Notes under the pieces: generated by a model
Told to the model about the DNA's origin: nothing
Database searches by the model: none
What the model saw: the letters and a program-made list of their open reading frames with translations, nothing else
NCBI GenBank assembly: GCA_040954595.2
Contig: JBECUI020000031.1
Coordinates: 62,001-126,000, forward strand
Length of the DNA stretch: 64,000 nt
Direction of reading: 5' to 3'
Source: Balanoglossus misakiensis
Lineage: Eukaryota; Animalia; Hemichordata
Program-made: the position numbers and the translations under genes
Shown here: positions 38,291-64,000 of the stretch, piece by piece
How the letters are laid out: every line of letters begins with the position of its first letter
Numbering within the stretch: position 1 is the stretch's first letter

Positions 38291-38297
38291 ATGAAGG

Positions 38298-40947
38298 TTA
38301 GGGGCTTGGGAGGGCGGTGGGGGGCTGGCCTGGGAGGTCTTTGATGTGGGGGTGGTAGGCGGGACTGCCGTTCACCCGGCCTTCAATGACCCAATCGTTG
38401 ACGGACCAGCCTAGCTTGCCAGTTTCGGTCCCGGTGTACCAGCTTGGGGTTTTTAGTTGATCCAGGCTGACGGTGCTTCCAGAGGTGTTGGGGCTGGCTT
38501 GGGCATTGCCGTCAGGGTCTGTGATACTCTGATTCGCATAGCGGTAGCTCTTCGTTATGGTGCCAGCAAAGGATGCTCCGACCAAACCACCCACCTGGGT
38601 GGAGTCACTCTGACCCAAGACATTCCCTGTAGCATAGCTATTCGTTATGGTGCCTTGATTGAGGAATCCTATCAAACCACCCACACCAGAGGTCCCCGAG
38701 ACATCTCCAGTCGCATAGCTATCTGTTATGCGACCACCTGAACTATTCATATCCCCGACCAGACCACCCACGCCGCTACTTTGCCCCGTGACACCCCCAG
38801 TGTCCGTGACATCCCCAGCCCCAGTGCCCGTGACATCCCCAGTGGCATAGCTGCCTGTTATGCTAGCAGTGCTGTACCCGGCCAAGCCGCCCACAAAGTC
38901 TTTCATCCCCGAGACATCTCCAGTAGCATAGCTGCCTGTTATGGAGGCGTTATTATCTCCGACCAAACCACCCACCTGGAGGTCCCCCGAGACATCTCCA
39001 GTGGCATAGCTAGCCCTTATGCTGCCGCTGCTGTCTCCAACCAAACCACCCACGTTATTTCCCTGGCCCGAGACATCTCCGGTGGCATAGCTATCCCTTA
39101 TGATACCGCCGCTGTACCCAGCCAAGCCTCCCACGTTATTCCCCTGTCCCGAGACATCTCCGGTGGAATAGCTAGCCCTTATGCTGCCGCTGCTGGACCC
39201 AGCCAAGCCACCCACGTTGCTGCCACCCGTGACAGAACCCGTGGTATAGCTGCCTGTTATGGTTCCACCCGAGACTCCAGCCAAACCACCAACGCTTCTG
39301 CTACCCGTGACAGAACCCGTAGCATAGCTGCCTATAATCTCTCCCTCGTTATAACCCAACCAAACTACCTACGTTAGTATCCCCCGAGAAAGAGCCACCC
39401 AGCAGTTCCAAATCCTTAATTTGACCTCCAGCAAGCATAAAATTAAAGAAACCGACTCTATTAGCTAAAGGTGTCGTGACGGTCATTCCCTCGATACTGT
39501 GGTTTTTACCATCAAAACTCCCAGCATATCCACCGCTTAGGTAGTTGCCATCGTCGTCATAAGTTCCAGGCTAAGAGGGTCCAGTTTCCGTTGTCGGCAT
39601 CATCGTCGCTGTCGAAGGGGTCATCCCTGATCCCGTCGTTGTCAGCGTCAGCGAAGTTGAGGTCCATGCTTAGCTCGTAGTTCCAGTTATCGGGGTAGTT
39701 TTCACTATCCACTCCGATTTTGGCCAGTTCACTCAGGCGGTGGATGTACTGCTTGCCGTCGGCGGTGGGGATGAGGGGGGTGGTGTAACGGTATTCAGCG
39801 CTGCCGTCGCTGAGCAGGGCACGCAGGTAGTAGGGCCTTTCATTGCTGAGTCCGCTTAGTTCCACTGTCTGAGGGCCGAGGCTGCCTGTAAAGGAAACCT
39901 TCTTGACCATGATGCTTAAAGCCTGGTCGGTGAAGGCTTGGAGTTCTGTTTCTAGTCCTAGGGGAGCGTCAACTTCAACCATGATTTTTCCAGAACGGGG
40001 AACGGCATCGGTAATGACGATGCCATGGGGAGAATAAGGATTAGGAAGCGTTATCCAATCCGTGGAGGCCTCCGGGGAGACCTGATTCCCTTTGGCCCGC
40101 AGGCGGTAGGAGGTACCGTCGGTCAGGCCAGTCAGGCTTATCTCCTGGGATGTTGCTGCCGTCGGTTCGGAAACTGCTGTTGCGGTGGTAGAGCCAGCTT
40201 CGGTGAGAGCTTCTACGGTAATGCTAACGCCGGGTAGGGGCTTGAGGGTGATGATGAGGCTTTGGTAAGCCTGTCTTATGTTTTCAATGACAGCGGGGTC
40301 CAAGGCCCGTTCCGGACCGCCGAAGTCGCTCCAGGGGGCTTCAGTGTAGCCTGTTGTTTCTCCGATGGGGTAAAGGAGGGTGATCCCGGTCAAGGGAGTG
40401 GGAAAGGCCTCGGCGGGGCTGCCTGTAAAGCTGGGAGCCCTGGGGGCCAGGATTGTCAGCTTGTTGAGAGCCGTTCCGGCGAAGGCCAGATTGCCGATGG
40501 AGGTGATACCGTTACCTATCTGCACTTCGCTCAAGGAGGCAGATGAGCTGAAGGCCTCGTCTCCTATAGTCGTGACGCTGTTGGGAATATTTATGCTGGT
40601 GAGGGTGGAGTTTTTAAAGGCTGCCTCGGCTATGGCCGTAACGGGCTTGTTATAAATGAAAGAGGGTATGCTGAGGTCGGTGCTCTCTCGTCTTGCCAGA
40701 CCAGTTATAGTGATTTCCCTGCCTTCGTCCTGGTAGGTAAGTGCGTCGAAACTAGGGGGGGCGGTGAGGTTGCTGCAGGAAGTTATCAGGTAGAAAACGA
40801 AAAGGGAAAGACCAACTTTAGTGGCTAGGGTTTTTCTATGCTGTCTTACGCGGGGAAATAAGTGAGTGAGTGAGTGAGTGAGTGAGTGAGTGAGTGAGTG
40901 AGTGAGTGAGTGAGTGAGTGAGTGAGTGAGTTGGTAAATAAATTCAT
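38298..40947 (-). CDS. Phase-variable LRR/GLUG lipoprotein, copy 1 (OFF; extra indels near 39355 and 39570)
   Basis: AAGGAG-9nt-ATG, (CACT)17+TATT, signal peptide PRVRQHRKTLATKVGLSLFVFYLITSC, BspA LRR LTSINIPNSVTTIGDEAF, GLUG repeats (VGGLVG...SYATGDV). Confidence 0.85.
40861..40931 (-). repeat. SSR (CACT)17 plus one degenerate TATT unit, copy 1
   Basis: (AGTG)17AGT on the + strand, preceded by an extra AATA. Confidence 0.97.
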
Positions 40948-40979
40948 ATGCTGGATCTCCTTACAAATTTGATTGGTCT

Positions 40980-41008
40980 ACCCTATCGTAGTTATTCTTT
41001 TCTGTCAA
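40980..41008 (-). promoter_or_regulatory. Sigma70 promoter, TAGGGT allele (also 50296-50324, 56569-56597, 59831-59859)
   Basis: TTGACA-N17-TAGGGT, ending about 33 nt upstream of the ATG. Confidence 0.7.
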
Positions 41009-41279
41009 GTCTTTGCCATAGGTAAAAGACTTTTTGATTGAGCAGTGATATTGAATAATGACACTACGCTTCTAAAGCTTATTGCGTTTTAGAGGGAAAG
41101 CCAAGTTTTTTGGAATTATTTTCTGTTTTTGGGGAAGACTTCGGGGTTGGGGCGGCGATAGAGAGGTCCAGGGGGGGCTGGTTTGGGGAGATGTGCCTTA
41201 CAAGGCCCACACGGACTGCGGGGCTTGGAGGGCGGGACTACTGGTAGAGGCATCATCCCCGCATTTGCGGGGGTGATGG

Positions 41280-43876
41280 CTAGGGGGTTGGTAGGGGGGT
41301 GTCGGGCTGGCCGGGGAGGTTGGTGATGTGGGGGTGGTTTGGGGGGGTGCCGTTCACCCGGCCTTCAATGACCCAATCGTTGACGGACCAGCCTAGCTTG
41401 CCAGTTTCGGTCCCGGTGTACCAGCTTGGGGTTTTTAGTTGATCCAGGCTGACGGTGCTGCCAGAGGTGTTGGGGCTGGCTTGGGCATTGCCGTCAGGGT
41501 CTGTGATACTCTGATTCGCATAGCGGTAGCTGTTCGTTATGGTGCCAAAGGATAATCCGACCAAACCACCCACCTGGGCGCTGCCACTCTTCCCCAAGAC
41601 ATTCCCTGTAGCATAGCTATTCGTTATGGTGCCTTGATTGAATACTCCTATCAAGCCGCCCACCACAGGAGAGAACATCCCCGAGACATCTCCAGTCGCA
41701 TAGCTATCTGTTATGCCACCACCTGAACTAGTCATATCCCCGACCAGACCACCCACAGAAGAAGACTGCCCCGTGACATCCCCAGTGGCATAGCTGCCTG
41801 TTATGCTAGCAGAGCTGTACCCGGCCAAGCCGCCCACAAGGTCGTTCATCCCCGAGACATCTCCAGTAGCATAGCTGCCTGTTATGGAGGCGTTATTATC
41901 TCCGACCAAACCACCCACCTGGAGGTTCCCCGAGACATCTCCAGTGGCATAGCTAGCCCTTATGCTGCCGCTGCTGTCTCCAACCAAACCACCCACGTTA
42001 TTTCCCTGGCCCGAGACATCTCCGGTGGCATAGCTATCCCTTATGATACCGCCGCTGTACCCAGCCAAGCCTCCCACGTTATTCCCCTGTCCCGAGACAT
42101 CTCCGGTGGAATAGCTATCCCTTATGCTGCCGCCGCTGTACCCAGCCAAGCCACCCACGTTGCTGCTACCCGTGACAGAACCCGTGGTATAGCTGTCTGT
42201 TATGGTTCCACCCGATACTCCAGCCAAACCACCAACGCTTCTGCTACCCGTGACAGAACCCGTAGCATAGCTGCCTATAATCTCTCCCTCGTTATACCCA
42301 ACCAAACTACCTACGTTAGTATCCCCCGAGAAAGAGCCACCCAGCAGTGCCAGATCCTTAATTTGACCTCCAGCAAGCATAAAATTAAAGAAACCGACTC
42401 TATTAGCTAAAGGTGTCGTGACGGTCATTCCCTCGATACTGTGGTTTTTACCATCAAAGTTCCCAGCATATCCACCGCTTAGGTAGTTGCCATCGTCGTC
42501 ATAAGTTCCAGGGCTAAGAGGGGTCCAGTTTCCGTTGTCGGCATCATCGTCGCTGTCGAAGGGGTCATCCCTGATCCCGTCGTTGTTCGCGTCAGCGAAG
42601 TTGAGGTCCATGCTTAGCTCGTAGTTCCAGTTATCGGGGTAGTTTTCCATATCCACTCCGATTTTGGCCAGTTCACTTAGGCGGTGGATGTACTGCTTGC
42701 CATTGGCGGTGGGGATGAGGGGAGTGGAATAGCGGTATTCAGCGCTGCCATCGCTAAGCTTGGCATGCAGGTAGTAGGGCCTTTCATTGCTGACCCCGCT
42801 GAGTTCCACTGTCTGAGGGCCGAGGCTGCCTGTAAAGGAAACCTGCTTGACCATGATGCTTAAAGCCTGGTCGGTGAAGGCCTGGAGTTCTGATTCTAGT
42901 CCTAGGGGAGCGTCAACTTCAACCATGATTTTTCCAGAACGGGGAACGGCATCGGTAATGACGATGCCATGGGGAGAATAAGGATTAGGAAGCGTTATCC
43001 AATCCGTGGAGGCCTCCGGGGAGACCTGGCTCCCTTTGGCCCGCAGGTGGTAGGAGGTACCGTCGGTCAGGCCAGTCAGGCTTATCTCCTGGGATGTTGC
43101 TGCCGTTGGTTCGGAAACTGCTGTTGCGGTAGCTTCACTGCTAAAGTCAGCTTCGGTGTGAGCTTCTACGGTAATGCTAACGCCGGGTAGGGGCTTGAGG
43201 GTGATGATGAGGCTTTGGTAAGCCTGTCTTATATTTTCAATGACAGAGGGGTCCAAGGCCCGTTCCGGACCGCCGAAGTCGCTCCAGGGGGCTTCAGTGT
43301 AGCCTGTTGTTTCTCCGATGGGGTAAAGGAGGCTGATCCCGGTCAAGGGAGCGGGAAAGGCCTCGGCGGGGCTGCCTGTAAGGCTGGGGGCCCTGGGGGC
43401 CAGGATGCTTAGCTTGTTAAGGGCCGTTCCGGCGAAGGCCAGATTGCCGATGGAGGTGATACCGTTACCTATCTGCACTTCGCTCAAGGAGGCAGCTGAG
43501 CTGAAGGCCTCGTCTCCTATAGTCGTGACGCTGTTGGGAATATTTATGCTGGTAAGGATAGAGTTTTTAAAGGCTGCCTCGGCTATGGCCGTAACGGGCT
43601 TGTTATAAATGAAAGAGGGTATGCTGAGGTCGGTGCTGTCTTGTCTTGCCAGACCAGTTATAGTGATTTCCCTGCCTTCGTCCTGGTAGGTAAGTGCGTC
43701 GAAACTAGGGGGGGCAGTGGGGTTGCTGCAGGAAGTTATCAGGTAGAAAACGAAAAGGGAAAGACCAACTTTAGTGGCTAGGGTTTTTCTATGCTGTCTT
43801 ACGCGGGGAAGTGAGTGAGTGAGTGAGTGAGTGAGTGAGTGAGTGAGTGAGTGAGTGAGTTGATAGATAAATTCAT
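41280..43876 (-). CDS. Phase-variable LRR/GLUG lipoprotein, copy 2 (OFF, n=12; otherwise intact)
   Basis: ATG lies 389 nt upstream of the track ORF start (2 mod 3); frame open from signal peptide to stop. Confidence 0.9.
43810..43860 (-). repeat. SSR (CACT)12, copy 2
   Basis: 51 bp = (AGTG)12AGT. Confidence 0.97.
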
Positions 43877-43908
43877 ATGCTGGATCTCCTTACAAATTTG
43901 ATTGGTCT

Positions 43909-43937
43909 ATCCTATCGTAGTTATTCTTTTTTGTCAA
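43909..43937 (-). promoter_or_regulatory. Sigma70 promoter, TAGGAT allele (also 47002-47030, 53419-53447, 62749-62777)
   Basis: TTGACA-N17-TAGGAT, ending about 33 nt upstream of the ATG. Confidence 0.8.
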
Positions 43938-44364: not shown

Positions 44365-46969
44365 CTAGGGGGTTGGCAGGGGGGTGTCGGGCTGGCCGGA
44401 GAGGTTGGTGATGTGGGGGTGGTAGGGGGGGGTGCCGTTCACCCGGCCTTCAATGACCCAATCGTTGACGGACCAGCCTAGCTTGCCAGTTTCGGTTCCA
44501 GTGTACCAGCTTGGGGTTTTTAGTTGATCCAGGCTGACGGTGCTGCCATAGGTGTTGGGTGTAGCGTGGGCATTGCCGTCAGGGTCTGTGATACTCTGAT
44601 TCGCATAGCGGTAGCTGCTCGTTATGGAGCCAAAGAATGCTCCGACCAAACCACCCACCTGGGGGGCCACCTGGGGGGAGCCTCTCTGCCCCAAGACATT
44701 CCCTGTAGCATAGCTATTCGTTATGGTGCCATGATCAAGGATTCCTATCAAACCACCCACCGCACTGGTCCCCGAGACATCTCCAGCCGCATAGCTGTCT
44801 GTTATGCCCCCCTCACTAATAGATCCAACCAAACCACCCACGCTGTCACTTTGCCCCGAGACATCTCCAGTGGCATAGCTGTTCGTTATAGTGGTATCAA
44901 ATACCTGTCCGGCCAAGCCGCCCACAAAATTCCTCTGACCCGAGACATCTCCAGTGGCATAGCTAGCCATTATACTACCTCTGCTGTCTCCAACCAAGCC
45001 GCCCACGCTACTTCCCTGACCCGTGACATCTCCAGTGGCATGGCTATCTGTTATGGAGGCTCTATTATCTCCAACCAAACCACCCACGTTATTCCCCTGT
45101 CCCGAGACATCTCCGGTGGAATAGCTATCCCTTATGCTGCCGCTGCTGTACCCAACCAAACCACCCACGGTACCCCCCTGCCCCGAGACATCTCCGGTGG
45201 AATAGCTATCCCTTATGCTGCCGCTGCTGGACCCAGCCACGCCACCCACGTTGCTGCTACCCGTGACAGAACCCGTGGTATAGCTGCCTGTTATGGTTCC
45301 ACCCGATACTCCAGCCAAACCACCAACGCTTCTGCTACCCGTGACAGAACCCGTAGCATAGCTGCCTATAATCTCTCCCTCGTTATACCCAACCAAACTA
45401 CCTACGTTAGTATCCCCCGAGAAAGAGCCACCCAGCAGTTCCAAATCCTTAATTTGACCTCCAGCAAGCATAAAATTAAAAAACCGACTCTATTAGCTAA
45501 GGTGTCGTGACGGTCATTCCCTCGATACTGTGGTTTTTACCATCAAAACTCCCAGCATATCCACCGCTTAGGTAGTTTCCATCGTCGTCATAAGTTCCAG
45601 GGCTAAGAGGGGTCCAGTTTCCGTTGTCGGCATCATCGTCGCTGTCGAAGGGGGTCATCCCTGATCCCGTCGTTGTCGGCGTCAGCGAAGTTGAGGTCCA
45701 TGCTTAGCTCGTAGTTCCAGTTATCGGGGTAGTTTTCACTATCCACTCCGATTTTGGCCAGTTCACTCAGGCGGTGGATGTACTGCTTGCCATTGGCGGC
45801 GGGAATAAGGGGGGTGGTGTAACGGTATTCAGCGCTGCCGTCGCTGAGCTGAGCACGCAGGTAGTAGGGCCTTTCATTGCTGACCCCGCTGAGTTCCACT
45901 GTCTGAGGGCCAAGGCTGCCTGTAAAGGAAACCTGCTTGACCATGATGCTTAAAGCCTGGTCGGTGAAGGCTTGGAGTTCTGATTCTAGTCCTAGGGGAG
46001 CGTCAACTTCAACCATGATTTTTCCAGAACGGGGAACGGCATCGGTAATGACGATGCCATGGGGAGAATAAGGATTAGGAAGCGTTATCCAATCCGTGAA
46101 GGCCTCCGGGGAGACCTGGCTCCCTTTGGCCCGCAGGCGGTAGGAGGTACCGTCGGTCAGGCCAGTCAGGCTTATCTCCTGGGATGTTGTTGCCGTCGGT
46201 TCGGAAACTGCTGTTGCGGTGGTAACGCCAGCTTCGGTGCGAGCTTCTACGGTAATGCTAACGCCGGGTAGGGGCTTGAGGGTAATGATGAGGCTTTGGT
46301 AAGCCTGTCTTATGTTTTCAATGACAGAGGGGTCCAAGGCCCGTTCCGGACCGCCGAAGCCGCTCCAGAGGCCTTCAGTGTAGCCTGTTGTTTCTCCGAT
46401 GGGGTAAAGGAGGGTGATCCCGGTCAAGGGGGCAGGAAAGGCCTCGGCGGGCTGCCTATAAAGCTGGGGGCCCTGGGGGCCAGGACGGTGAGTTTATTAA
46501 GGGCCGTTCCGGCGAAGGCCAGATTGCCGATGGAGGTGATACCGTTACCTACATGTACTTCGCTCAAGGAGGCAGCTGAGCTGAAGGCCTCGTCTCCTAT
46601 AGTCGTGACGCTGTTGGGAATATTTATGCTGGTAAGGGTGGAATTTTTAAAGGCTGCCTCGGCTATGGCCGTAACGGGCTTGTTATAAATGAAAGAGGGT
46701 ATGCTGAGGTCGGTGCTGTCTTGTCTTGCCAGACCAGTTATAGTGATTTCCCTGCCTTCGTCCTGGTAGGTAAGTGCGTCGAAACTAGGGGGGGCGGTGA
46801 GGTTGCTGCAGGGAAGTTATCAGGTAGAAAACGAAAAGGAAAAGACCAACTTTAGTGGCTAGGGTTTTTCTATGCTGTCTTACGCGGGGAAGTGAGTGAG
46901 TGAGTGAGTGAGTGAGTGAGTGAGTGAGTGAGTGAGTGAGTGAGTGAGTGAGTTGATAGATAAATTCAT
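44365..46969 (-). CDS. Phase-variable LRR/GLUG lipoprotein, copy 3 (OFF, n=15; homopolymer indels near 46811, 46449, 45650, 45499)
   Basis: Same architecture; indels found by comparison with sister copies. Confidence 0.82.
46891..46953 (-). repeat. SSR (CACT)15, copy 3
   Basis: 63 bp = (AGTG)15AGT. Confidence 0.97.
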
Positions 46970-47199
46970 ATGCTGGATCTCCTTACAAATTTGATTGGTC
47001 TATCCTATCGTAGGTATTCTTTTTTGTCAAGTCTTTTCTATAGGTAAAAGACTTTTTGATTGAGCAGTGATCTTGAATAAGGACACTACGCTTCTAAAGC
47101 TTATGACGTTTTAGAGAGAATGCTAAGTTTTTTGGAATTATTTTCTGTTTTGGGGAAGACTTCAGGGTTGGGGCGGCGATGGAGAGGTCCAGGGGGGGG

Positions 47200-47670
47200 G
47201 TGGTTTGGGGAGATGTGCCTTCCAAGGCCCGCACGGACTACGGGCCTTGGAGGGCGGGATTGCTGGTAGAGGCATCATCCCCGCATTTGCGGGGGTGATG
47301 GCTAGGGGGTTGGCAGGGGGGTGTCGGGCTGGCCGGGGAGGTTGGTGATGTGGGGGTGGTTGGGGGAGATGAGCCCTCCAAGGCCCGCACGGACTGCGGG
47401 GCTTGGAGGGCGGGATTGCTGGTAGAGGCATCATCCCCGCATTTGCGGGGGTGATGGCTAGGGGGTTGGTAGGGGGGTGTCGGGCTGGCCGGGGAGGTTG
47501 GTGATGGGGGGCTGGTTGGGGGAGATGTGCCTTCCAAGGCCCGCACGGACTGCGGGGCTTGGAGGGCGGGATTGCTGGTAGAGGCATCATCCCCGCATTT
47601 GCGGGGGTGATGGCTAGGGGGTTGGCAGGGGGGTGTCGGGCTGGCCGGGGAAGTTAGTGATGTGGGGGTG
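47200..47670. repeat. 156-bp double-hairpin tandem repeat (3 copies here; 1-3 after each of copies 2-9)
   Basis: GGCATCATCCCCGCATTTGCGGGGGTGATG recurs at 47271, 47427 and 47583 (period 156). Each unit also has the hairpin CCTyCAAGGCCCGCA-CGGAC-TGCGGGGCTTGGAGG and a copy of the gene's last ~55 nt. Confidence 0.95.
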
Positions 47671-50263
47671 GTTGGGGGGGTGCCGTTCACCCGACCTGTG
47701 ATGACCCAGTCCTCGGCGGTCCAGCCTAGATTGCTTGAGTCGGTGGAGGTGTACCAGCTTGGGGTTTTTAGTTGAACCAGGGTTACGGTGCTGCCGAAGG
47801 TGGTGGGTGTAGCGTGGGCATTGCCGTCAGGGTCCGTGATACTCTGATTCGCATAGCGGTAGCTGTTCGTTATGGTGCCAAAGGATACTCCGACCAAACC
47901 ACCCACGCTATTACTCTGTCCCGAGACATCCCCTGTAGCATAGCTATTCGTTAGGGTACCTCCATCGAGTACTCCTATCAAACCACCCCCAGCATCGTTA
48001 CACGTGACATCACCAGTAGCATAGCTGCCTGTTATGATAGCAGTGCTCTGTCCAACCAAACCACCCACAAGATTGAACCCCGAAACAGTACCAGTGGCAT
48101 AGCTGCCTGTTATGATAGCAGTGCTGTTCCCGGCCAAACCACCTACCTGATGACTCTGCCCCGAGACATCTCCAGTGGCATAGCTGCCTGTTATGCTACT
48201 AGTGCTGAGCCCAGCCAAACCACCCACAATGTCACTCATCCCCGAGACATCTCCAGTAGCATAGCTGCCTGTTATGCTAGCAGTGCTGTGCCCGGCCAAG
48301 CCGCCGACATACCCCTGACCCGTGACATCTCCAGTGGCATGGCTATCTGTTATGGAAGCACGGCTCTGTCCAACCAAACCACCCACGGTACCCCCCTGCC
48401 CCGAGACATCTCCGGTGGAATAGCTATCCCTTATGCTACCGCCGCTGTACCCAGCCAAACCACCAACGTTGCTGCTACCCGTGACAGAACCCGTGGTATA
48501 GCTGTCTGTTATGGTTCCATCCGATACTCCAGCCAAACCACCAACGTTGCTGCTACCCGTGACAGAACCCGTGGTATAGCTGCCTGTTATGGTTCCACCC
48601 GATACTCCAGCCAAACCACCAACGCTTCTGCTACCCGTGACAGAACCCGTAGAATAGCTGCCTATGATCTCTCCCTCGTTATACCCAACCAAACTACCTA
48701 CGTTAGAATTACCCGAGAAAGAGCCACCCAGCAGTTCCAGATCCTTAATTTGACCTCCAGCAAGCATCAAATTAAAAAAACCTACTCTATTAGCTAAAGG
48801 TGTCGTGACGGTCATTCCCTCGATACTGTGGTTTTTACCATCAAAGTTCCCACCATACCCACCGCTTAGGTAGTTTCCATCGTCGTCATAAGTTCCAGGG
48901 CTAAGAGGGGTCCAGTTTCCGTTGTCGGCATCATCGTCGCTGTCGAAGGGGTCATCTCTGATCCCGTCGTTGTCAGCGTCAGCGAAGTTGAGGTCCATGC
49001 TTAGCTCGTAGTTCCAGTTATCGGGGTAGTTTTCACTATCCACTCCGATTTTGGCCAGTTCACTTAGGCGGTGGATGTACTGCTTGCCGTCGGCGGTGGG
49101 GATGAGGGGGGTGGTGTAACGGTATTCAGCGCTGCCGTCGCTGAGCTGGGCACGCAGGTAGTAGGGCCTTTCATTGCTGACCCCGCTGAGTTCCACTGTC
49201 TGAGGGCCGGGGCTGCCTGTAAAGGAAACCTTCTTGACCATGATGCTTAAAGCCTGGTCGGTGAAGGCTTGGAGTTCTGATTCTAGTCCTAGGGGAGCGT
49301 CAACTTCAACCATGATTTTTCCAGAACGGGGAACGGCATCGGTAATGACGATGCCATGGGGAGAGTAAGGATTAGGAAGCGTTATCCAATCCGTGGAGGC
49401 CTCCGGGGAGACCTGGCTCCCTTTGGCCCGCAGGTGGTAGGAGGTACCATCGGTCAGGCCAGTCAGGCTTATCTCCTGGGATGTTGTTGCCGTCGGTTCG
49501 GAAACTGCTGTTGCGGTAGCTTCACTGCTAAAGTCAGCTTCGGTGTGAGCTTCTACGGTAATGCTAACGCCGGGTAGGGGCTTGAGGGTGATGATGAGGC
49601 TTTGGTAAGCCTGTCTTATGTTTTCAATGACAGAGGGGTCCAAGGCCCGTTCCGGACCGCCGAAGCCGCTCCAGGGGGCTTCAGTGTAGCCTGTTGTTTC
49701 TCCGATGGGGTAAAGGAGGGTGATCCCGGTCAAGGGGGCGGGAAAGGCCTCGGCGGGGCTGCCTATAAAGCTGGGGGCCATAGGGGCCAGGACGGTGAGT
49801 TTGTTAAGGGCCGTTCCGGCGAAGGCCAGATTGCCGATGGAGGTGATACCGTTACCTATCTGCACTTCGCTCAAGGAGGCAGCTGAGTTGAAGGCCTCGT
49901 CTCCTATAGTCGTGACGCTGTTGGGAATATTTATGCTGGTAAGGATAGAGTTTTTAAAGGCTGCCTCGGCTATGGCCGTAACGGGCTTGTTATAAATGAA
50001 AGAGGGTATGCTGAGGTCGGTGCTCTCTCGTCTTGCCAGACCAGTTATAGTGATTTCCCTGCCTTCGTCCTGGTAGGTAAGTGCGTCGAAACTAGGGGGG
50101 GCGGTGAGGTTGCTGCAGGAAGTTATCAGGTAGAAAACGAAAAGGAAAAGACCAACTTTAGTGGCTAGGGTTTTTCTATGCTGTCTTACGCGGGGAAGTG
50201 AGTGAGTGAGTGAGTGAGTGAGTGAGTGAGTGAGTGAGTGAGTGAGTTGATAAATAAATTCAT
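47614..50263 (-). CDS. Phase-variable LRR/GLUG lipoprotein, copy 4 (OFF, n=12; 1-nt deletion near 47672 gives read-through into downstream repeats)
   Basis: Same architecture; homologous TAG at 47614-47616. Confidence 0.87.
50197..50247 (-). repeat. SSR (CACT)12, copy 4
   Basis: 51 bp = (AGTG)12AGT. Confidence 0.97.
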
Positions 50264-50751
50264 ATGCTGGATCTCCTTACAAATTTGATTGGTCTACCCT
50301 ATCGTAGTTATTCTTGTTTGTCAAGACTTTTCCATAGGTAAAAGACTTTTTGATTGAGCAGTGATATTGAATAATGACACTACGCTTCTAAAGCTTATGA
50401 CGTTTTAGAGAGAATGCTAAGTTTTTTGGAATCATTTTCTGTTTTTTGGGAAGACTTCGGGGTTGGGGCGGCGATGGAGAGGTCCAGGGGGGGGTGGTTT
50501 GGGGAGATGAGCCTTCCAAGGCCCGCACGGACTGCGGGGCTTGGAGGGCGGGACTGCTGGTAGAGGCATCATCCCCGCATTTGCGGGGGTGATGGCTAGG
50601 GGGTTGGCAGGGGAGTGTCGGGCTGGCCGGGGAGGTTGGTGATGTGGGGCTGGTTTGGGGAGATGTGCCTTCCAAGGCCCGCACGGACTGCGGGGCTTGG
50701 AGGGCGGGATTGCTGGTAGAGGCATCATCCCCGCATTTGCGGGGGTGATGG

Positions 50752-53386: not shown

Positions 53387-53874
53387 ATGCTGGATCTCCT
53401 TACAAATTTGATTGGTCTATCCTATCGTAGGTATTCTTTTTTGTCAAGTCTTTTCTATAGGTAAAAGACTTTTTGATTGAGCAGTGATCTTGAATAAGGA
53501 CACTACGCTTCTAAAGCTTATGACGTTTTAGAGAGAATGCTAAGTTTTTTGGAATTATTTTCTGTTTTTGGGGAAGACTTCAGGGTTGGGGCGGCGATGG
53601 AGAGGTCCAGGGGGGGGTGGTTTGGGGAGATGTGCCTTCCAAGGCCCGCACGGACTGCGGGGCTTGGAGGGCGGGACTGCTGGTAGAGGCATCATCCCCG
53701 CATTTGCGGGGGTGATGGCTAGGGGGTTGGCAGGGGGGTGTCGGGCTGGCCGGGGAGGTTGGTGATGGGGGGCTGGTTTGGGGAGATGTGCCTTCCAAGG
53801 CCCGCACGGACTGCGGGGCTTGGAGGGCGGGATTGCTGGTAGAGGCATCATCCCCGCATTTGCGGGGGTGATGG

Positions 53875-56536
53875 CTAGGGGGTTGGCAGGGGGGTGTCGG
53901 GCTGGCCGGGGAAGTTGGTGATGTGGGGGTGGTAGGGGGGGGTGCCGTTCACCCGGCCTTCAATGACCCAATCGTTGACGGACCAGCCTAGCTTGCCAGT
54001 TTCGGTTCCAGTGTACCAGCTTGGGGTTTTTAGTTGATCCAGGCTGACGGTGCTGCCGAAGGTGGTGGGTGTAGCCTGGGCATTGCCGTCAGGGTCCGTG
54101 ATACTCTGATTCGCATAGCGGTAGCTGTTCGTTATGGTGCCAAAGGATACTCCGACCAAACCACCCACCTGGGTGCTGCCACTCTTCCCTAAGACATTCC
54201 CTGTAGCATAGCTATTCGTTAGGGTGCCTTCACTGAGTACTCCTATCAAACCACCCCCAGCATCGTTACACGTGACATCACCAGTAGCATAGCTGCCTGT
54301 TATGCCACGGCTCTGTCCAACCAAACCACCTACCTGATTACTCTGCCCCGAGACATCTCCAGTGGCATAGCTGCCTGTTATGATAGCAGTGCTGAGCCCA
54401 GCCAAGCCACCCACGGTACCCCCCTGCCCCGAGACATCTCCAGTGGCATAGCTGCCTGTTATGCTACTAGTGCTGAGCCCAGCCAAGCCACCCACAATGT
54501 CACTCATCCCCGAGACATCTCCAGTAGCATAGCTGCCTGTTATGCTAGCAGTGCTGTGCCCGGCCAAGCCGCCCACGTTAGCTCCCTGACCCGTGACATC
54601 TCCAGTGGCATGGCTATCTGTTATGGAAGCACGGCTCTGTCCAACCAAACCACCCACGGTACCCCCCTGCCCCGAGACATCTCCGGTGGCATAGCTATCC
54701 CTTATGATACCGCCGCTGTACCCAGCCAAGCCTCCCACGTTATTCCCCTGTCCCGAGACATCTCCGGTGGAATAGCTATCCCTTATGCTGCCGCTGCTGG
54801 ACCCAGCCAAACCACCCACGTTGCTGCTACCCGTGACAGAACCCGTGGTATAGCTGCCTGTTATGGTTCCACCCGATACTCCAGCCAAACCACCAACGCT
54901 TCTGCTACCCGTGACAGAAGCCGTAGCATAGCTGCCTATAATCTCTCCCTCGTTATACCCAACCAAACTACCTACGTTAGTATCCCCCGAGAAAGAGCCA
55001 CCCAGCAGTTCCAAATCCTTAATTTGACCTCCAGCAAGCATAAAATTAAAAAAACCTACTCTATTAGCTAAAGGTGTCGTGACGGTCATTCCCTCGATAC
55101 TGTGGTTTTTACCATCAAAGTTCCCAGCATATCCACCGCTTAGGTAGTTGCCATCGTCGTCATAAGTTCCAGGGCTAAGAGGGGTCCAGTTTCCGTTGTC
55201 GGCATCATCGTCGCTGTCGAAGGGGTCATCCCTGATCCCGTCGTTGTTCGCGTCAGCGAAGTTGAGGTCCATGCTTAGCTCGTAGTTCCAGTTATCGGGG
55301 TAGTTTTCCGTATCCACTCCGATTTTGGCCAGTTCACTCAGGCGGTGGATGTACTGCTTACCATTGGCGGCGGGAATAAGGGGAGTGGAATAGCGGTATT
55401 CAGCGCTGCCGTCGCTGAGCTGGGCACGCAGGTAGTAGGGCCTTTCATTGCTGAGTCCGCTTAGTTCCACTGTCTGAGGGCCGAGGCTGCCTGTAAAGGA
55501 AACCTTCTTGACCATGATGCTTAAAGCCTGGTCGGTGAAGGCTTGGAGTTCTGATTCTAGTCCTAGGGGAGCGTCAACTTCAACCATGATTTTTCCAGAA
55601 CGGGGAACGGCATCGGTAATGACGATGCCATGGGGAGAATAAGAATTAGGAAGCGTTATCCAATCCGTGGAGGCCTCCGGGGAGACCTGGCTCCCTTTGG
55701 CCCGCAGGTGGTAGGAGGTACCGTCGGTCAGGCCAGTCAAGCTTATCTCCTGGGATGTTGTTGCCGTCGGTTCGGAAACTGCTGTTGCGGTGGTAGAGCC
55801 AGCTTCGGTGAGAGCTTCAACGGTAATGCTAACGCCGGGTAGGGGCTTGAGGGTGATGATGAGGCTTTGGTAAGCCTGTCTTATGTTTTCAATGACAGAG
55901 GGGTCCAAGGCCCGTTCCGGACCGCCGAAGCCGCTCCAGAGGCCTTCAGTGTAGCCTGTTGTTTCTCCGATGGGGTAAAGGAGGGTGATCCCGGTCAAGG
56001 GGGCAGGAAAGGCCTCGGCGGGGCTGCCTATAAAGCTGGGGGCCATAGGAGCCAGGATGGTCAGCTTGTTGAGGGCCGTTCCGGCGAAGGCCAGATTGCC
56101 GATGGAGGTGATACCGTTACCTACATGTACTTCGCTCAAGGAGGCAGCTGAGCTGAAGGCCTCGTCTCCTATAGTCGTGACGCTGTTGGGAATATTTATG
56201 CTGGTAAGGGTGGAATTTTTAAAGGCTGCCTCGGCTATGGCCGTAACGGGCTTGTTATAAATGAAAGAGGGTATGCTGAGGTCGGTGCTGTCTTGTCTTG
56301 CCAGACCAGTTATAGTGATTTCCCTGCCTTCGTCCTGGTAGGTAAGTGCGTCGAAACTAGGGGGGGCGGTGAGGTTGCTGCAGGAAGTTATCAGGTAGAA
56401 AACGAAAAGGAAAAGACCAACTTTAGTGGCTAGGGTTTTTCTATGCTGTCTTACGCGGGGAAGTGAGTGAGTGAGTGAGTGAGTGAGTGAGTGAGTGAGT
56501 GAGTGAGTGAGTGAGTGAGTTGATAAATAAATTCAT
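53875..56536 (-). CDS. Phase-variable LRR/GLUG lipoprotein, copy 6 (OFF, n=14; otherwise intact)
   Basis: ATG lies 397 nt upstream of the track ORF start (1 mod 3). Confidence 0.9.
56462..56520 (-). repeat. SSR (CACT)14, copy 6
   Basis: 59 bp = (AGTG)14AGT. Confidence 0.97.
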
Positions 56537-56764
56537 ATGCTGGATCTCCTTACAAATTTGATTGGTCTACCCTATCGTAGTTATTCTTTTTTGTCAAGAC
56601 TTTTCCATAGGTAAAAGACTTTTTGATTGAGCAGTGATCTTGAATAAGGACACTACGCTTCTAAAGCTTATGACGTTTTAGAGGGAATGCCAAATTTTTT
56701 GGAATTATTTTCTGTTTTTGGGGAAGACCTCGGGGTTGGGGCGGCGATGGAGAGGTCCAGGGGG

Positions 56765-57235
56765 GGCAGGTTGGGGGAGATGTGCCTTCCAAGGCCCGCA
56801 CGGACTGCGGGGCTTGGAGGGCGGGACTACTGGTAGAGGCATCATCCCCGCATTTGCGGGGGTGATGGCTAGGGGGTTGGCAGGGGGGTGTCGGGCTGGC
56901 CGGGGAAGTTGGTGATGTGGGGCTGGTTGGGGGAGATGTGCCTTCCAAGGCCCGCACAGACTGCGGGGCTTGGAGGGCGGGACTGCTGGTAGAGGCATCA
57001 CCCCCGCATTTGCGGGGGTGATGGCTAGGGGGTTGGCAGGGGGGTGTCGGGCTGGCCGGGGAAGTTGGTGATGTGGGGCTGGTTGGGGGAGATGTGCCTT
57101 CCAAGGCCCGCACGGACTGCGGGCCTTGGAGGGCGGGACTACTGGTAGAGGCATCATCCCCGCATTTGCGGGGGTGATGGCTAGGGGGTTGGTAGGGGGG
57201 TGTCGGGCTGGCCGGGGAGGTTGGTGATGTGGGGG
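56765..57235. repeat. 156-bp double-hairpin tandem repeat, 3 copies
   Basis: Hairpin starts near 56840, 56996 and 57152. Confidence 0.93.
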
Positions 57236-59798
57236 TGGTTTGGGGGGGTGCCGTTCACCCGGCCTTCAATGACCCAATCGTTGACGGACCAGCCTAGCTT
57301 GCCAGTTTCGGTCCCGGTGTACCAGCTTGGGGTTTTTAGTTGATCCAGGCTGACGGTGCTGCCAGAGGTGTTGGGGCTGGCTTGGGCATTGCCGTCAGGG
57401 TCTGTGATACTCTGATTCGCATAGCGGTAGCTGTTCGTTATGGTGCCAAAGGATGCTCCGACCAAACCACCCACCTGGGCACTGCCACTCTTCCCCAAGA
57501 CATTCCCTGTAGCATAGCTATTCGTTATGGTGCCTTGATTGAATACTCCTATCAAGCCGCCCACCACAGGAGAGAACATCCCCGAGACATCTCCAGTCGC
57601 ATAGCTATCTGTTATGCCACCACCTGAACTAGTCATATCCCCGACCAGACCACCCAGGGTCCTTTGCCCCGTGACATCCCCAGTGGCATAGCTGCCTGTT
57701 ATGCTAGCAGAGCTGTACCCGGCCAAGCCGCCCACAAGGTCGTTCATCCCCGAGACATCTCCAGTAGCATAGCTGCCTGTTATGGAGGCGTTATTATCTC
57801 CGACCAAACCACCCACCAGGAAGTTCCCCGAGACATCTCCAGTGGCATAGCTAGCCCTTATGCTGCCGCTGCTGTCTCCAACCAAACCACCCACGTTATT
57901 TCCCTGGCCCGAGACATCTCCAGTGGCATAGCTATCCCTTATGCTACCGCCGCTGTACCCAGCCAAGCCGCCCACGTTATTTCCCTGGCCCGAGACATTT
58001 CCGGTGGAATAGCTATCCCTTATGCTGCCGCTGCTGGACCCAACCAAGCCACCCACGTTGCTGCTACCCGTGACAGAACCCGTGGTATAGCTGCCTGTTA
58101 TGGTTCCACCCGATACTCCAGCCAAACCACCAACGCTTCTGCTACCCGTGACAGAACCCGTAGCATAGCTGCCTATAATCTCTCCCTCGTTATACCCAAC
58201 CAAACTACCTACGTTAGAATTACCCGAGAAAGAGCCACCCAGCAGTGCCAGATCCTTAATTTGACCTCCAGCAAGCATAAAATTAAAAAAACCGACTCTA
58301 TTAGCTAAAGGTGTCGTGACGGTCATTCCCTCGATACTGTGGTTTTTACCATCAAAGTTCCCAGCATATCCACCACTTAGGTACTTTCCATCGTCGTCAT
58401 AAGTTCCAGGGCTAAGAGGGGTCCAGTTTCCGTTGTCGGCATCATCGTCGCTGTCGAAGGGGTCATCCCTGATCCCGTCGTTGTCGGCGTCAGCGAAGTT
58501 GAGGTCCATGCTTAGCTCGTAGTTCCAGTTATCGGGGTAGTTTTCCGTATCCACTCCGATTTTGGCCAGTTCACTTAGGCGGTGGATGTACTGCTTGCCA
58601 TTGGCGGTGGGGATGAGGGGGGTGGTGTAACGGTATTCAGCGCTGCCGTCGCTAAGCTTGGCATGCAGGTAGTAGAGCCTTTCATTGCTGACCCCGCTGA
58701 GTTCCACTGTCTGAGGGCCGGGGCTGCCTGTAAAGGAAACCTTCTTGACCATGATGCTTAAAGCCTGGTCGGTGAAGGCTTGGAGTTCTGATTCTAGTCC
58801 TAGGGGAGCGTCAACTTCAACCATGATTTTTCCAGAACGGGGAACGGCATCGGTAATGACGATGCCATGGGGAGAGTAAGGATTAGGAAGCGTTATCCAA
58901 TCCGTGAAGGCCTCCGGGGAGACCTGATTCCCTTTGGCCCGCAGGCGGTAGGAGGTACCGTCGGTCAGGCCAGTCAGGCTTATCTCCTGGGAAGTTGTTG
59001 CCGTCGGTTCGGAAACTGCTGTTGCGGTAGCTTCACTGCTAAAGTCAGCTTCGGTGTGAGCTTCAACGGTAATGCTAACGCCGGGTAGGGGCTTGAGGGT
59101 GATGATGAGGCTTTGGTAAGCCTGTCTTATGTTTTCAATGACAGAGGGGTCCAAGGCCCGTTCTAGACCGCCGAAGCCGCTCCAGAGGCCTTCAGTGTAG
59201 CCTGTTGTTTCTCCGATGGGGTAAAGGAAGGTGATCCCGGTCAAGGGGGCAGGAAAGGCCTCGGCGGGGCTGCCTATAAAGCTGGGGGCCATGGGGGCCA
59301 AGACGGTGAGTTTGTTAAGGGCCGTTCCGGCGAAGGCCAGATTGCCGATGGAGGTGATACCGTTACCTATCTGCACTTCGCTCAAGGAGGCAGATGAGCT
59401 GAAGGCCTCGTCTCCTATAGTCGTGACGCTGTTGGGAATATTTATGCTGGTGAGGGTGGAGTTTTTAAAGGCTGCCTCGGCTATGGCCGTAACGGGCTTG
59501 TTATAAATGAAAGAGGGTATGCTGAGGTCGGTGCTCTCTCGTCTTGCCAGACCAGTTATAGTGATTTCCCTGCCTTCGTCCTGGTAGGTAAGTGCGCCGA
59601 AACTAGGGGGGGCGGTGAGGTTGCTGCAGGAAGTTATCAGGTAGAAAACGAAAAGGAAAAGACCAACTTTGGCGGCTAGGGTTTTTCTATGTTGTCTTAC
59701 GCGGGGAAGTGAGTGAGTGAGTGAGTGAGTGAGTGAGTGAGTGAGTGAGTGAGTGAGTGAGTGAGTGAGTGAGTGAGTGAGTTGATAGATAAATTCAT
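57181..59798 (-). CDS. Phase-variable LRR/GLUG lipoprotein, copy 7 (OFF, n=18; otherwise intact)
   Basis: ATG lies 413 nt upstream of the track ORF start (2 mod 3). Confidence 0.9.
59708..59782 (-). repeat. SSR (CACT)18, copy 7
   Basis: 75 bp = (AGTG)18AGT. Confidence 0.97.
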
Positions 59799-60128
59799 AT
59801 GCTGGATCTCCTTACAAATTTGATTGGTCTACCCTATCGTAGTTATTCTTTTCTGTCAAGTCTTTGCCATAGGTAAAAGACTTTTTGATTGAGCAGTGAT
59901 CTTGAATAAGGACACTACGCTTCAAAGCTTATTGCGTTTTAGAGGGAAAGCCAAGTTTTTTGGAATTATTTTCTGTTTTTGGGGAAGACTTCGGGGTTGG
60001 GGCAGCGATGGAGAGGTCCAGGGGGGCTGGTTGGGGGAGATGAGCCCTCCAAGGCCCGCACGGACTGCGGGGCTTGGAGGGCGGGACTGCTGGTAGAGCC
60101 ATCATCCCCGCATTTGCGGGGGTGATGG

Positions 60129-62716
60129 CTAGGGGGTTGGCAGGGGGGTGTCGGGCTGGCCGGGGAAGTTGGTGATGTGGGGGTGGTAGGGGGGGGTGCC
60201 GTTCACCCGGCCTGTGATGACCCAGTCCTCGGCGGTCCAGCCTAGATTGCTTGAGTCGGTGGAGGTGTACCAGCTTGGGGTTTTTAGTTGATCCAGGCTG
60301 ACGGTGCTGCCATAGGTGTTGGGTGTAGCGTGGGCATTGCCGTCAGGGTCTGTGATACTCTGATTCGCATAGCGGTAGCTCTTCGTTATGGTGCCAAAGG
60401 ATACTCCGACCAAACCACCCACGTTATTGCTCTGTCCCGAGACATCCCCTGTAGCATAGCTATTCGTTAGGGTACCTCCATTGAGTACTCCTATCAAACC
60501 ACCCGCAGCATCGTTACACGTGACATCACCAGTAGCATAGCTGCCTGTTATGCCACGGCTCTGTCCAACCAAACCACCTACCTGATTACTCTGCCCCGAG
60601 ACATCTCCAGTGGCATAGCTGCCTGTTATGATAGCAGTGCTGTGCCCGGCCAAACCACCTACCTGAGAATCCTGCCCCGAGACATCTCCAGTGGCATAGC
60701 TGCCTGTTATGCTACTAGTGCTGAGCCCAGCCAAGCCACCCACAATGTCACTCATCCCCGAGACATCTCCAGTAGCATAGCTGCCTGTTATGCTAGCAGT
60801 GCTGTGCCCGGCCAAGCCGCCCACGTTAGTTCCCTGACCCGTGACATCTCCAGTGGCATGGCTATCTGTTATGGAAGCACGGCTCTGTCCAACCAAACCA
60901 CCCACGGTACCCCCCTGCCCCGAGACATCTCCGGTGGAATAGCTATCCCTTATGCTACCGCCGCTGTACCCAGCCAAACCACCAACGTTGCTGCTACCCG
61001 TGACAGAACCCGTGGTATAGCTGCCTGTTATGGTTCCACCCGATACTCCAGCCAAACCACCAACGCTTCTGCTACCCGTGACAGAACCCGTAGCATAGCT
61101 GCCTATAATCTCTCCCTCGTTATACCCAACCAAACTACCTACGTTAGAATTGCCCGAGAAAGAGCCACCCAGCAGTGCCAGATCCTTAATTTGACCTCCA
61201 GCAAGCATAAAATTAAAAAAACCGACTCTATTAGCTAAAGGTGTCGTGACGGTCATTCCCTCGATACTGTGGTTTTTACCATCAAAGTTCCCAGCATATC
61301 CACCGCTTAGGTAGTTGCCATCGTCGTCATAAGTTCCAGGGCTAAGAGGGGTCCAGTTTCCGTTGTCGGCATCATCGTCGCTGTCGAAGGGGTCATCCCT
61401 GATCCCGTCGTTGTCAGCGTCAGCGAAGTTGAGGTCCATGCTTAGCTCGTAGTTCCAGTTATCGGGGTAGTTTTCCGTATCCACTCCGATTTTGGCCAGT
61501 TCACTTAGGCGGTGGATGTACTGCTTGCCGTCGGCGGTGGGGATGAGGGGGGTGGTGTAACGGTATTCAGCGCTGCCGTCGCTAAGCTTGGCATGCAGGT
61601 AGTAGGGCCTTTCATTGCTGACCCCGCTGAGTTCCACTGTCTGAGGGCCGGGGCTGCCTGTAAAGGAAACCTGCTTGACCATGATGCTTAAAGCCTGGTC
61701 GGTGAAGGCTTGGAGTTCTGCTTCTAGTCCTAGGGGAGCGTCAACTTCAACCATGATTTTTCCAGAACGGGGAACGGCATCGGTAATGACGATGCCATGG
61801 GGAGAATAAGGATTAGGAAGCGTTATCCAATCCGTGGAGGCCTCCGGGGAGACCTGGCTCCCTTTGGCCCGCAGGTGGTAGGAGGTACCATCGGTCAGGC
61901 CAGTCAGGCTTATCTCCTGGGATGTTGTTGCCGTCGGTTCGGAAACTGCTGTTGCGGTAGCTTCACTGCTAAAGTCAGCTTCGGTGTGAGCTTCTACGGT
62001 AATGCTAACGCCGGGTAGGGGCTTGAGGGTGATGATGAGGCTTTGGTAAGCCTGTCTTATGTTTTCAATGACAGCGGGGTCCAAGGCCTGTTCTGGACCG
62101 CCGAAGCCGCTCCAGAGGCCTTCAGTGTAGCCTGTTGTTTCTCCGATGGGGTAAAGGAGGGTGATCCCGGTCAAGGGGGCGGGAAAGGCCTCGGGAGGAC
62201 TGCCTATAAAGCTGGGGGCCCTAGAGGCCAGGATGCTTAGCTTGTTGAGAGCCGTTCCGGCGAAGGCCAGATTGCCGATGGAGGTGATACCGTTACCTAT
62301 CTGCACTTCGCTCAAGGAGGCAGCTGAGCTGAAGGCCTCGTCTCCTATAGTCGTGACGCTGTTGGGAATATTTATGCTGGTAAGGGTGGAATTTTTAAAG
62401 GCTGCCTCGGCTATGGCCGTAACGGGCTTGTTATAAATGAAAGAGGGTATGCTGAGGTCGGTGCTGTCTTGTCTTGCCAGACCAGTTATAGTGATTTCCC
62501 TGCCTTCGTCCTGGTAGGTAAGTGCGTCGAAACTAGGGGGGGCGGTGAGGTTGCTGCAGGAAGTTATCAGGTAGAAAACGAAAAGGAAAAGACCAACTTT
62601 AGTGGCTAGGGTTTTTCTATGTTGTCTTACGCGGGGAAGTGAGTGAGTGAGTGAGTGAGTGAGTGAGTGAGTGAGTGAGTGAGTGAGTGAGTGAGTGAGT
62701 TGATAGATAAATTCAT
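60129..62716 (-). CDS. Phase-variable LRR/GLUG lipoprotein, copy 8 (OFF, n=15; otherwise intact)
   Basis: ATG lies 401 nt upstream of the track ORF start (2 mod 3). Confidence 0.9.
62638..62700 (-). repeat. SSR (CACT)15, copy 8
   Basis: 63 bp = (AGTG)15AGT. Confidence 0.97.
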
Positions 62717-63049
62717 ATGCTGGATCTCCTTACAAATTTGATTGGTCTATCCTATCGTAGGTATTCTTTTTTGTCAAGTCTTTTCTATAGGTAAAAGACT
62801 TTTTGATTGAGCAGTGATCTTGAATAAGGACACTACGCTTCTAAAGCTTATGACGTTTTAGAGAGAATGCTAAGTTTTTTGGAATTATTTTCTGTTTTTG
62901 GGGAAGACTTCAGGGTTGGGGCGGCGATGGAGAGGTCCAGGGGGGGGCTGGTTGGGGGAGATGAGCCCTCCAAGGCCCGCACGGACTGCGGGGCTTGGAG
63001 GGCGGGATTGCTGGTAGAGGCATCATTCCCGCATTTGCGGGGGTGATGG

Positions 63050-64000
63050 CTAGGGGGTTGGTAGGGGGGTGTCGGGCTGGCCGGGGAAGTTGGTGATGTG
63101 GGGGTGGTAGGCGGGGGTGCCGTTCACCCGGCCTTCAATGACCCAATCGTTGACGGACCAGCCTAGCTTGCCAATTTCGGTTCCAGTGTACCAGCTTGGG
63201 GTTTTTAGTTGATCCAGGCTGACGGTGCTGCCAGAGGTGTTGGGGCTGGCTTGGGCATTGCCGTCAGGGTCTGTGAAACTCTGATTCACATAGCGGTAGC
63301 TGTTGGTTATGGTGCCTGTATCAATTAGTCCTATCAAACCACCCAGGTCGGCCCCTTGCCCCGAGACATTCCCAGTGGCATAGCTGTTTGTTATGCTACC
63401 GAAGCTGTGATTACCGACCAAACCACCCACGATGTTCCCTTGCCCCGAGAGATCCCCAGTGGCATAGCTGTTCTCTATGCTGCCTGAGTTGAATCCCGCC
63501 AAGCCGCCCAAATTGTCGCTGACCCCCGAAACAGTACCGGTGGCATAGCTGTCTGTTATGGAAGAAGTGTTGGTTCCAGCCAAACCACCCACAGTACCGT
63601 CCCCCGAGACATCTCCAGTGGCATAGTTGCCTGTCATGGAGGCTCTATTATTTCCAACCAAACCACCTACGTCCCTACCCTGACCTGAGACATTCCCGGT
63701 GGCATAGCTGCCTGTTATGGTGAATTGGCTGTGTCCAACCAAACCACCTACACTAGCGTCCCCCGAAACAGTACCAGTGGCATAGCTGTCTGTTATGGGA
63801 GCAAAGTTCCTTCCGACCAAACCACCTACAATGTGACTCTGCCCTGAGACATTCCCGGTGGCATAGCTGCTCGTTATGCTTCCCATTATCCAGCTGAATC
63901 CAACCAAACCACCCACGTAGTCCCCCTGACCCGAGACATCTCCAGTGGTATAGCTAGCCTTTATACTGCCGTCGTTGTACCCAGCCAAGCCACCCACATA
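63050..64000 (-). CDS. GLUG lipoprotein, copy 9, 3' part only
   Basis: GLUG repeats and the conserved C-terminus DQLKTPSWY...PGQPDTPLPTP; the 5' end lies outside the window. Confidence 0.9.
   Translation of the reverse strand, partial: YVGGLAGYNDGSIKASYTTGDVSGQGDYVGGLVGFSWIMGSITSSYATGNVSGQSHIVGGLVGRNFAPITDSYATGTVSGDASVGGLVGHSQFTITGSYATGNVSGQGRDVGGLVGNNRASMTGNYATGDVSGDGTVGGLAGTNTSSITDSYATGTVSGVSDNLGGLAGFNSGSIENSYATGDLSGQGNIVGGLVGNHSFGSITNSYATGNVSGQGADLGGLIGLIDTGTITNSYRYVNQSFTDPDGNAQASPNTSGSTVSLDQLKTPSWYTGTEIGKLGWSVNDWVIEGRVNGTPAYHPHITNFPGQPDTPLPTP

Follow-up and report, generated by a model that had tools for sequence, protein, structure and literature searches.

The 64,000-nt stretch analysed here (the window) comprises positions 62,001 to 126,000 of contig JBECUI020000031.1 in the Balanoglossus misakiensis assembly GCA_040954595.2. 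It contains a tandem array of lipoprotein genes at 38298–64000 on the minus strand, and in each of the eight complete units a tract of CACT repeats separates the start codon from the lipoprotein reading frame. The array is probably a slipped-strand phase-variation system, in which a gene would be ON when the number of repeats (n) equals 1 mod 3, the leader would be removed at lipidation and recombination would renew the beta-helix part of the protein.

Organisation of the Array

The array consisted of eight complete units and one cut unit with a spacing of 2.9–3.3 kb. In the ninth unit only the 3' end lay within the window, so its leader and tract were beyond view. The original prediction, made from the letters of the window, had proposed a bank of at least nine genes, each with its own switch; the tract was present in 8/8 complete units, and that of the ninth is not visible. 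The features are as follows.

Unit 1, 38298–41008, minus strand: -35 box at 41008, ATG at 40947, tract at 40861–40928 with 17 units plus TATT, an effective 18, out of frame; three one-base indels in the lipoprotein gene, likely assembly errors
Unit 2, 41280–43937, minus strand: ATG at 43876, tract at 43810–43857, n = 12, out of frame; Cys codon of the lipobox at 43730, 842-codon frame intact
Unit 3, 44365–47030, minus strand: ATG at 46969, tract at 46891–46950, n = 15, out of frame; five or more single-base indels, most of them in homopolymers, with an extra base directly before the Cys codon
Unit 4, 47614–50324, minus strand: ATG at 50263, tract at 50197–50244, n = 12, out of frame; gene short of one base close to its 3' end
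Unit 5, 50752–53447, minus strand: ATG at 53386, tract at 53296–53367, n = 18, out of frame; gene short of one base close to its 3' end
Unit 6, 53875–56597, minus strand: ATG at 56536, tract at 56462–56517, n = 14, the sole copy with n = 2 mod 3; 861-codon frame intact
Unit 7, 57181–59859, minus strand: ATG at 59798, tract at 59708–59779, n = 18, out of frame; 841-codon frame intact
Unit 8, 60129–62777, minus strand: promoter at 62777–62749, ATG at 62716, tract at 62638–62697, n = 15, out of frame; overlap of GTA and TAA at 62630, Cys codon at 62558, 835-codon frame intact; protein with signal peptide, LRR_5 at aa 63–135, probable Fn3-like middle and GLUG beta-helix
Unit 9, 63050–64000, minus strand: GLUG repeats and C-terminus only
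GC-rich hairpins, 41100–63050, minus strand: directly 3' of the stop codon in units 2–9

Every complete unit (8/8) had the same order of elements: a promoter of the form TTGACA-17-TAGG(A/G)T, the AAGGAG sequence, ATG, five further codons, (CACT)n and the lipoprotein frame. The -10 box was TAGGAT in four copies and TAGGGT in the other four, and the promoter strengths of the copies may differ. Downstream of the tract, copies 2, 6, 7 and 8 were intact. The hairpins, of which five were folded (-16 to -27 kcal/mol), had no U tail; the hairpin sits within a 156-bp tail present in one to three copies per unit, giving 15 hairpin matches in total. The GC content of the array was 54% versus 44% in the flank.

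Reading Frames Set by the CACT Tract

All eight tracts began 19 nt after the ATG and comprised 12–18 CACT units. Their lengths in copies 1–8 were 17 plus TATT (18 effective), 12, 15, 12, 18, 14, 18 and 15, exactly those given in the original prediction. The window held 97 matches to (CACT)4, all inside the eight tracts, compared with none in 100 shuffles, and no other tetranucleotide tract of at least four units was found in its 64 kb.

The leader ATG was the only candidate start with a good Shine–Dalgarno (SD) sequence (duplex energy of -9.2 kcal/mol, compared with -4.2 or weaker for the others), and no ATG, GTG or TTG occurred in the lipoprotein frame between the upstream stop and the Cys codon. 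Open reading frame (ORF) calling placed the starts at an internal TTG, as had been anticipated. From the leader ATG, the tract itself was open in 3/3 frames and continued into the lipoprotein only at n = 1 mod 3: on the copy-8 background, 13, 16 and 19 units gave products of 859, 863 and 867 aa, respectively, and the remaining length classes stopped early, after 25–35 aa. The seven copies with n = 0 mod 3 ended at ...FPA* and copy 6 at a TAG a few codons later. The frame logic proposed earlier was thus borne out by the sequence and its translations. In the consensus assembly, 0/8 copies were in frame and 7/8 had n = 0 mod 3.

Three copies shared identical 128-nt leaders, yet their tracts had 15, 18 and 15 units, which confirms that tract length differs between near-identical units. 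The tracts therefore change faster than their own flanks, and the differences between copies suggest that the tracts are mutable.

Phase Variation as the Probable Mode of Action

In the reading that we favour, the gain or loss of one CACT unit by strand slippage would turn each copy ON or OFF independently, at rates presumably like those of other tetranucleotide tracts. Independent switching is suggested by the promoter and tract that each copy has of its own and by the identical leaders with different n. The precursor of an ON copy would carry a leader of 50–58 residues, cut off by signal peptidase II, and the lipoprotein would be displayed on the surface and act in adhesion, with recombination between copies likely reshuffling the variable beta-helix. 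An ON copy would be rare in the population or located outside the window, and n = 0 would be in excess as ON alleles usually switch off by the loss of one unit.

Precedents exist for both of the last points. The meningococcal autB gene was in frame in 1/102 isolates yet was otherwise intact (PMC5118866), which offers a precedent for an all-OFF snapshot. Tetranucleotide tracts of H. influenzae show an excess of deletions (PMC3401435), and n = 0, one step after ON, would therefore be favoured.

Several observations weigh against phase variation of this kind. Under equal classes, the absence of in-frame copies (0/8) had P = 0.04 and the presence of 7/8 copies in one class had P = 0.008, these and the following figures being softened by the incomplete independence of the copies. 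A model with two OFF states fitted only with deletion bias and a recent passage through ON (P = 0.20–0.37 for copies one deletion-biased step from ON) and otherwise gave P = 0.003–0.09; with ON purged constantly, P was 0.005–0.09, and the combination of constant purging with deletion bias favoured n = 2, not n = 0 (P = 0.005–0.011). The lengths of 12, 15 and 18 also resemble a frame-keeping ladder. Finally, two sites varied between the ATG and the start of the tract, both synonymously in the frame that n = 0 leaves open but not when read from the ATG, which with two sites is a weak signal. The 7:1 frame skew is the weak point of slipped-strand switching and could point to something newer. In the ON/OFF picture drawn originally the frame logic stood, but the 0/8 copies in frame and the 7/8 in one class had not been weighed. 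Two of the alternatives considered below, expression of the n = 0 class and an assembly offset, share with phase variation the core assumption that the reading frame is the means by which the tract controls each gene.

Comparison with Independent Contigs

The assembly was compared with contigs from public runs, three in number, of one sample containing the same DNA; run X3 contributed no matching contig. This may be the window's own sample, and the comparison therefore tests the assembly, not the biology. A 25.5-kb contig of run X1 matched 20900–38355 with no substitutions and two one-base indels and ended at the array edge. The window thus has occasional indel errors, two across 17.5 kb of unique sequence and a larger number within the array. 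An ABC permease gene at 22602–23900 was split by indels at 23540 and 23888, both corrected by the X1 contig.

The three indels breaking copy 1 were absent from X1 contigs, which had the intact form. Since the indels lie mostly in homopolymer runs and copy 1 is intact in the X1 contigs, the one-base indels in copies 1, 4 and 5 are likely assembly errors; those in copy 3 may be assembly errors or decay.

The run contigs ended 10–15 bases inside the tracts, and tract lengths were read from the assembly alone. A 260-bp X1 contig ran without gaps from the signal peptide through the C-run into the tract, and on the ATG side no one-base indel occurred among the X1 matches listed, outside which two weaker matches with indels lay. 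The bases flanking the tract on either side were thus confirmed. These contigs did not support a homopolymer miscount by one base where the tract joins its flanks, an error that would turn n = 0 into the ON state, and a junction error therefore does not explain the out-of-frame state.

A different error would be a long-read consensus one unit short in most tracts, the true lengths being 13, 16 and 19 and 7/8 copies being ON. Such an offset would account directly for the three-unit ladder, the window does contain indel errors, and the tract middles come from the assembly only. It nevertheless appears improbable: one-base errors were not supported at either junction, n = 0 was found in 3/4 copies without any other indel, and a constant loss of one unit from tracts of 12–18 units would be odd, as random errors would be expected to blur a mod-3 pattern and not to produce one.

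Contig depth was 63 at the signal-peptide contig versus 8.3 in unique DNA, which fits about eight collapsed copies and is not to be read as a copy number. Contigs of 559 and 1080 bp from runs X1 and X2, with single-copy depth, matched 40918–43824 only partly, which suggests that more diverged paralogues lie at other sites of the genome. In this region, one contig had a 6-base insertion directly after the start codon (40934), and low-depth diverged variants of the region were seen in run X2.

Predicted Properties of the Encoded Lipoprotein

A bacterial lipoprotein signal peptide is recognised by a lipobox that ends in the Cys to be lipidated. The translations, inspected by eye, showed a basic N-region, a hydrophobic core and a lipobox with Cys in 7/8 copies, followed by a mature protein of 810–835 residues, and the product is a predicted spirochaetal lipoprotein. 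Pfam models scored above their cut-offs in the three full copies scanned, with LRR_5 at aa 63–135 and six to eight Glug motifs, in agreement with the BspA-LRR/GLUG architecture originally proposed. Sequence matches in the PDB were to TpLRR (6mlx) and to the beta-helix region of IgA1 protease (6xja), with E values of about 1e-7.

An alignment-based model built from 13 sequences contained a beta-helix at approximately residues 430–730 with predicted local distance difference test (pLDDT) values mostly >85, and the N-terminal 340 residues had values <50. A single-sequence fold was uninformative (mean pLDDT of 42). The fold search with the model returned no match at E <= 0.001, its top rows being IgA1-protease-like. 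The middle region is probably Fn3-like, judging by a language-model lead in which its features resembled Fn3/LRR_5 clusters (0.86); a sequence search with the middle 340 residues, scored against 5265 candidates of 459–1462 aa, gave no match.

Two identities were considered for the protein and rejected. IgA1 protease or Zmp (M26) matched only in the beta-helix, with no M26 protease domain detected by Pfam and no HExxH motif in copy 8. Membership of the Opa family (eight-stranded beta-barrel, CTCTT repeats) did not agree with Pfam, which gave only LRR_5 and Glug, so the array resembles opa only in the way it works. The domain families suggest a role as an adhesin. A separate 270-aa protein encoded at 14530–15342 of the window has LRR_8-type repeats, a class distinct from the LRR_5 of the array.

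Divergence and Recombination among the Copies

In the first 490 codons, compared across six copies (copies 1 and 3 being excluded due to their indels), the ratio of nonsynonymous to synonymous polymorphism (pN/pS) was 0.30, and 50/108 variable codons were synonymous (P = 2e-7). The array genes are therefore under purifying selection, and have thus been expressed and selected in the past; a dead pseudogene array was ruled out by the same ratio.

DNA identity among the copies was 95–98% in the 5' part and 79–97% in the GLUG part, in which whole repeats were gained or lost. The four-gamete test was failed by 1555/2556 informative site pairs. The copies are mosaics, with the GLUG part the most variable. 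Positive selection on the GLUG part was not shown, its pN/pS being 0.61, although pN was 0.13 versus 0.024.

The mosaic structure, the OFF state of all visible copies and the contigs of more diverged paralogues in the same run would also suit a silent archive, that is, locked-off donor cassettes feeding an expression site elsewhere by gene conversion, following the logic of vls, vlp and pilS, with the tract serving merely as their silencer. We regard this as improbable. Each unit retains a consensus promoter, SD, ATG and signal peptide (promoter, SD and ATG in 8/8 complete units), whereas known silent copies lack promoters (PMC4534519), and a tract of 12–18 units would be a poor lock.

Source Organism and Search for Related Arrays

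The named matches of the LolA protein encoded in the window were to Spirochaetaceae, including a clam-associated spirochaete at 56% identity; in a sample of 401 Spirochaetota genomes, LolA identity reached at most 50%. The nearest relatives of 6-phosphogluconate dehydrogenase were Spirochaetales loci (65–70%), and EF-G was 69–72% identical to that of 25 spirochaete genomes. These matches agree with the earlier assignment to a probable spirochaete, and the DNA appears to come from one to which none of the genomes searched is closely related. The spirochaete may be host-associated.

The original prediction had proposed a search for the array in related genomes, where the ATG-plus-tract pattern was found in 0/401 genomes of the class sample and 0/20 genomes of the G150 family/order. 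The exact motif had no match in metagenome contigs, and two motifs had none in viral contigs. The array-adjacent gene matched only distant loci, the best at 64%, and no match to the lipoprotein was found at its 80 loci. Protein searches with the array lipoprotein gave repeat-domain matches only, and a plasmid search gave nothing further. Three small-genome spirochaetes (G408, G420 and G422; loci L121–L145) had 20, 45 and 56 LRR_5 matches, respectively, and the 25 loci contained no tetranucleotide tract of at least four units.

CACT Tracts in Other Spirochaetes and Possible Translational Coupling

Tracts of (CACT)7+ were present in 4/401 sampled Spirochaetota genomes. There were seven of them, four in genome G128 (two of which may be a single locus assembled twice), and six started within 13 nt after an ATG, one G128 tract having no ATG in front. 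None of the seven was fused to the next gene; those behind an ATG formed separate leader ORFs. In the AT-rich genomes G128 and G284, which we take to be Brachyspira-like from their composition and gene content, leader ORFs with (CACT)16–20 preceded class I methyltransferase genes (L146:5906–7910, L148:5585–5665 and L179), each with an SD and ATG of its own. The leader stop overlapped the methyltransferase ATG in G284 (n = 20). Only 2/38 genomes of the G128 family had the tract.

In G037 (L147:3128–5911), a tract after an ATG was located upstream of a lipoprotein gene with Listeria–Bacteroides repeats (B-repeat), and in G389 (L180:5375–5800) upstream of a membrane-protein gene, the tract being split by an assembly gap. 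At L117:2512–2600 the tract followed an ATG upstream of a regulator-like gene. A metagenome scan revealed five loci, of which one was clearly a bacterial leader before a regulator-like gene and four appear to lie in microsatellite-rich or unclear DNA. The leader ORFs of G128 and G284 possibly confer phase variation by translational coupling.

These leader ORFs bear on another explanation of the frame skew in the array, according to which the n = 0 class is expressed and the switch has three states. In 8/8 copies a GTA codon in the lipoprotein frame overlaps the TAA leader stop, with the geometry of the common ATGA/GTGA overlaps, and ribosomes could re-initiate there or undergo a -1 shift. Re-initiation would give a signal peptide of ordinary length, and 7/8 copies would be ON at a low level with copy 6 OFF. 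The n = 0 state of 7/8 copies fits this proposal, as do the two Brachyspira-like genomes, where the tract lies in a leader ORF of its own ahead of a methyltransferase gene, and the stop/ATG overlap of G284. Coupling through overlapping stop and start codons is established (PMC6728339), and a title cited in PMC3960869 reports ribosomal frameshifting in gonococcal opa. However, GTA is absent from the table-11 starts and lacks an SD (duplex energy of +3.6 kcal/mol), and IF3 disfavours non-canonical starts and SD-less re-initiation (PMC2268962). Moreover, the downstream genes of the Brachyspira-like genomes have their own SD and ATG, and the overlap occurs in only 1/4 of the ATG-led tracts of these genomes. 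Ribosomes are known to shift frame at slippery heptamers, and a canonical one precedes the stop only in copy 1. On balance, expression at n = 0 is unlikely. It is similarly doubtful that the leader peptide makes the tract a high/low/off dial through re-initiation or a -1 shift, and that coupling is a general, overlooked mechanism in spirochaetes. The leader-ORF form may, in its own right, be a second route of repeat control for genes with their own start codon.

Other Features of the Window

Two neighbouring genes are partly duplicated at 12081–12901, where the copied pieces are fused; compared with 2530–2811 and 3674–4212, they match over 282 bp at 92% and 539 bp at 99% identity, respectively. 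At 1–1058, a gene that is presumably leucyl-tRNA-synthetase-like is split by a frameshift near 550.

Comparison with Known Systems

If slipped-strand switching operates here, a spirochaete has evolved an Opa-like combinatorial surface switch with up to 2^9 states plus recombination. Annotation pipelines miss the switch and the signal peptide, and such arrays would therefore be filed as truncated cytoplasmic genes. A literature search, conducted mostly without subscription papers, found no description of such a switch in spirochaetes, of CACT tracts in Brachyspira or of GLUG proteins combined with phase variation.

The gonococcal opa genes resemble the predicted behaviour of the array in being a multi-gene surface family (up to 11 genes) with a frameshift switch by repeats in the leader peptide and recombination among copies (PMC3960869). 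They differ in their CTCTT pentamer, beta-barrel outer-membrane proteins and scattered loci, whereas the array has a tetramer, large lipoproteins and a single tandem arrangement. In meningococcal autA and autB and the Haemophilus contingency genes, a tetranucleotide tract directly follows the start codon within the signal sequence, and almost every strain has autB switched off (PMC5118866). Unlike the array, autA and autB have an AAGC motif and are single autotransporter genes with no paralogue family. The claim of novelty in the original prediction was thus overstated, opa and autA/autB using the same logic.

Banks of variable lipoprotein genes with one repeat per gene are also known as vlhA in Mycoplasma gallisepticum and vlp in M. 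hyorhinis (PMC4534519 and PMC11868660). The vlhA genes have a trinucleotide repeat that precedes the promoter and acts on transcription, whereas the repeat of the array lies inside the reading frame. Within the same phylum, Borrelia (vls, vlp and vsp) and Treponema pallidum (tprK) have variable surface families with gene conversion (PMC4534519). Antigenic variation in these spirochaetes employs silent cassettes or promoter homopolymers, in contrast to a putative coding tetranucleotide switch in each full gene. The vlp genes of Mycoplasma have a poly-A tract in the promoter, and the tpr genes of T. pallidum have poly-G promoters. BspA/TpLRR and the streptococcal IgA1 protease share LRR_5, Glug and beta-helix elements with the array protein, which differs in having no M26 domain. 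The predicted logic of the array is known from opa and autA/autB, and what would be new is its occurrence in a spirochaete, as a tandem array of lipoprotein genes with a tetramer switch in the coding sequence.

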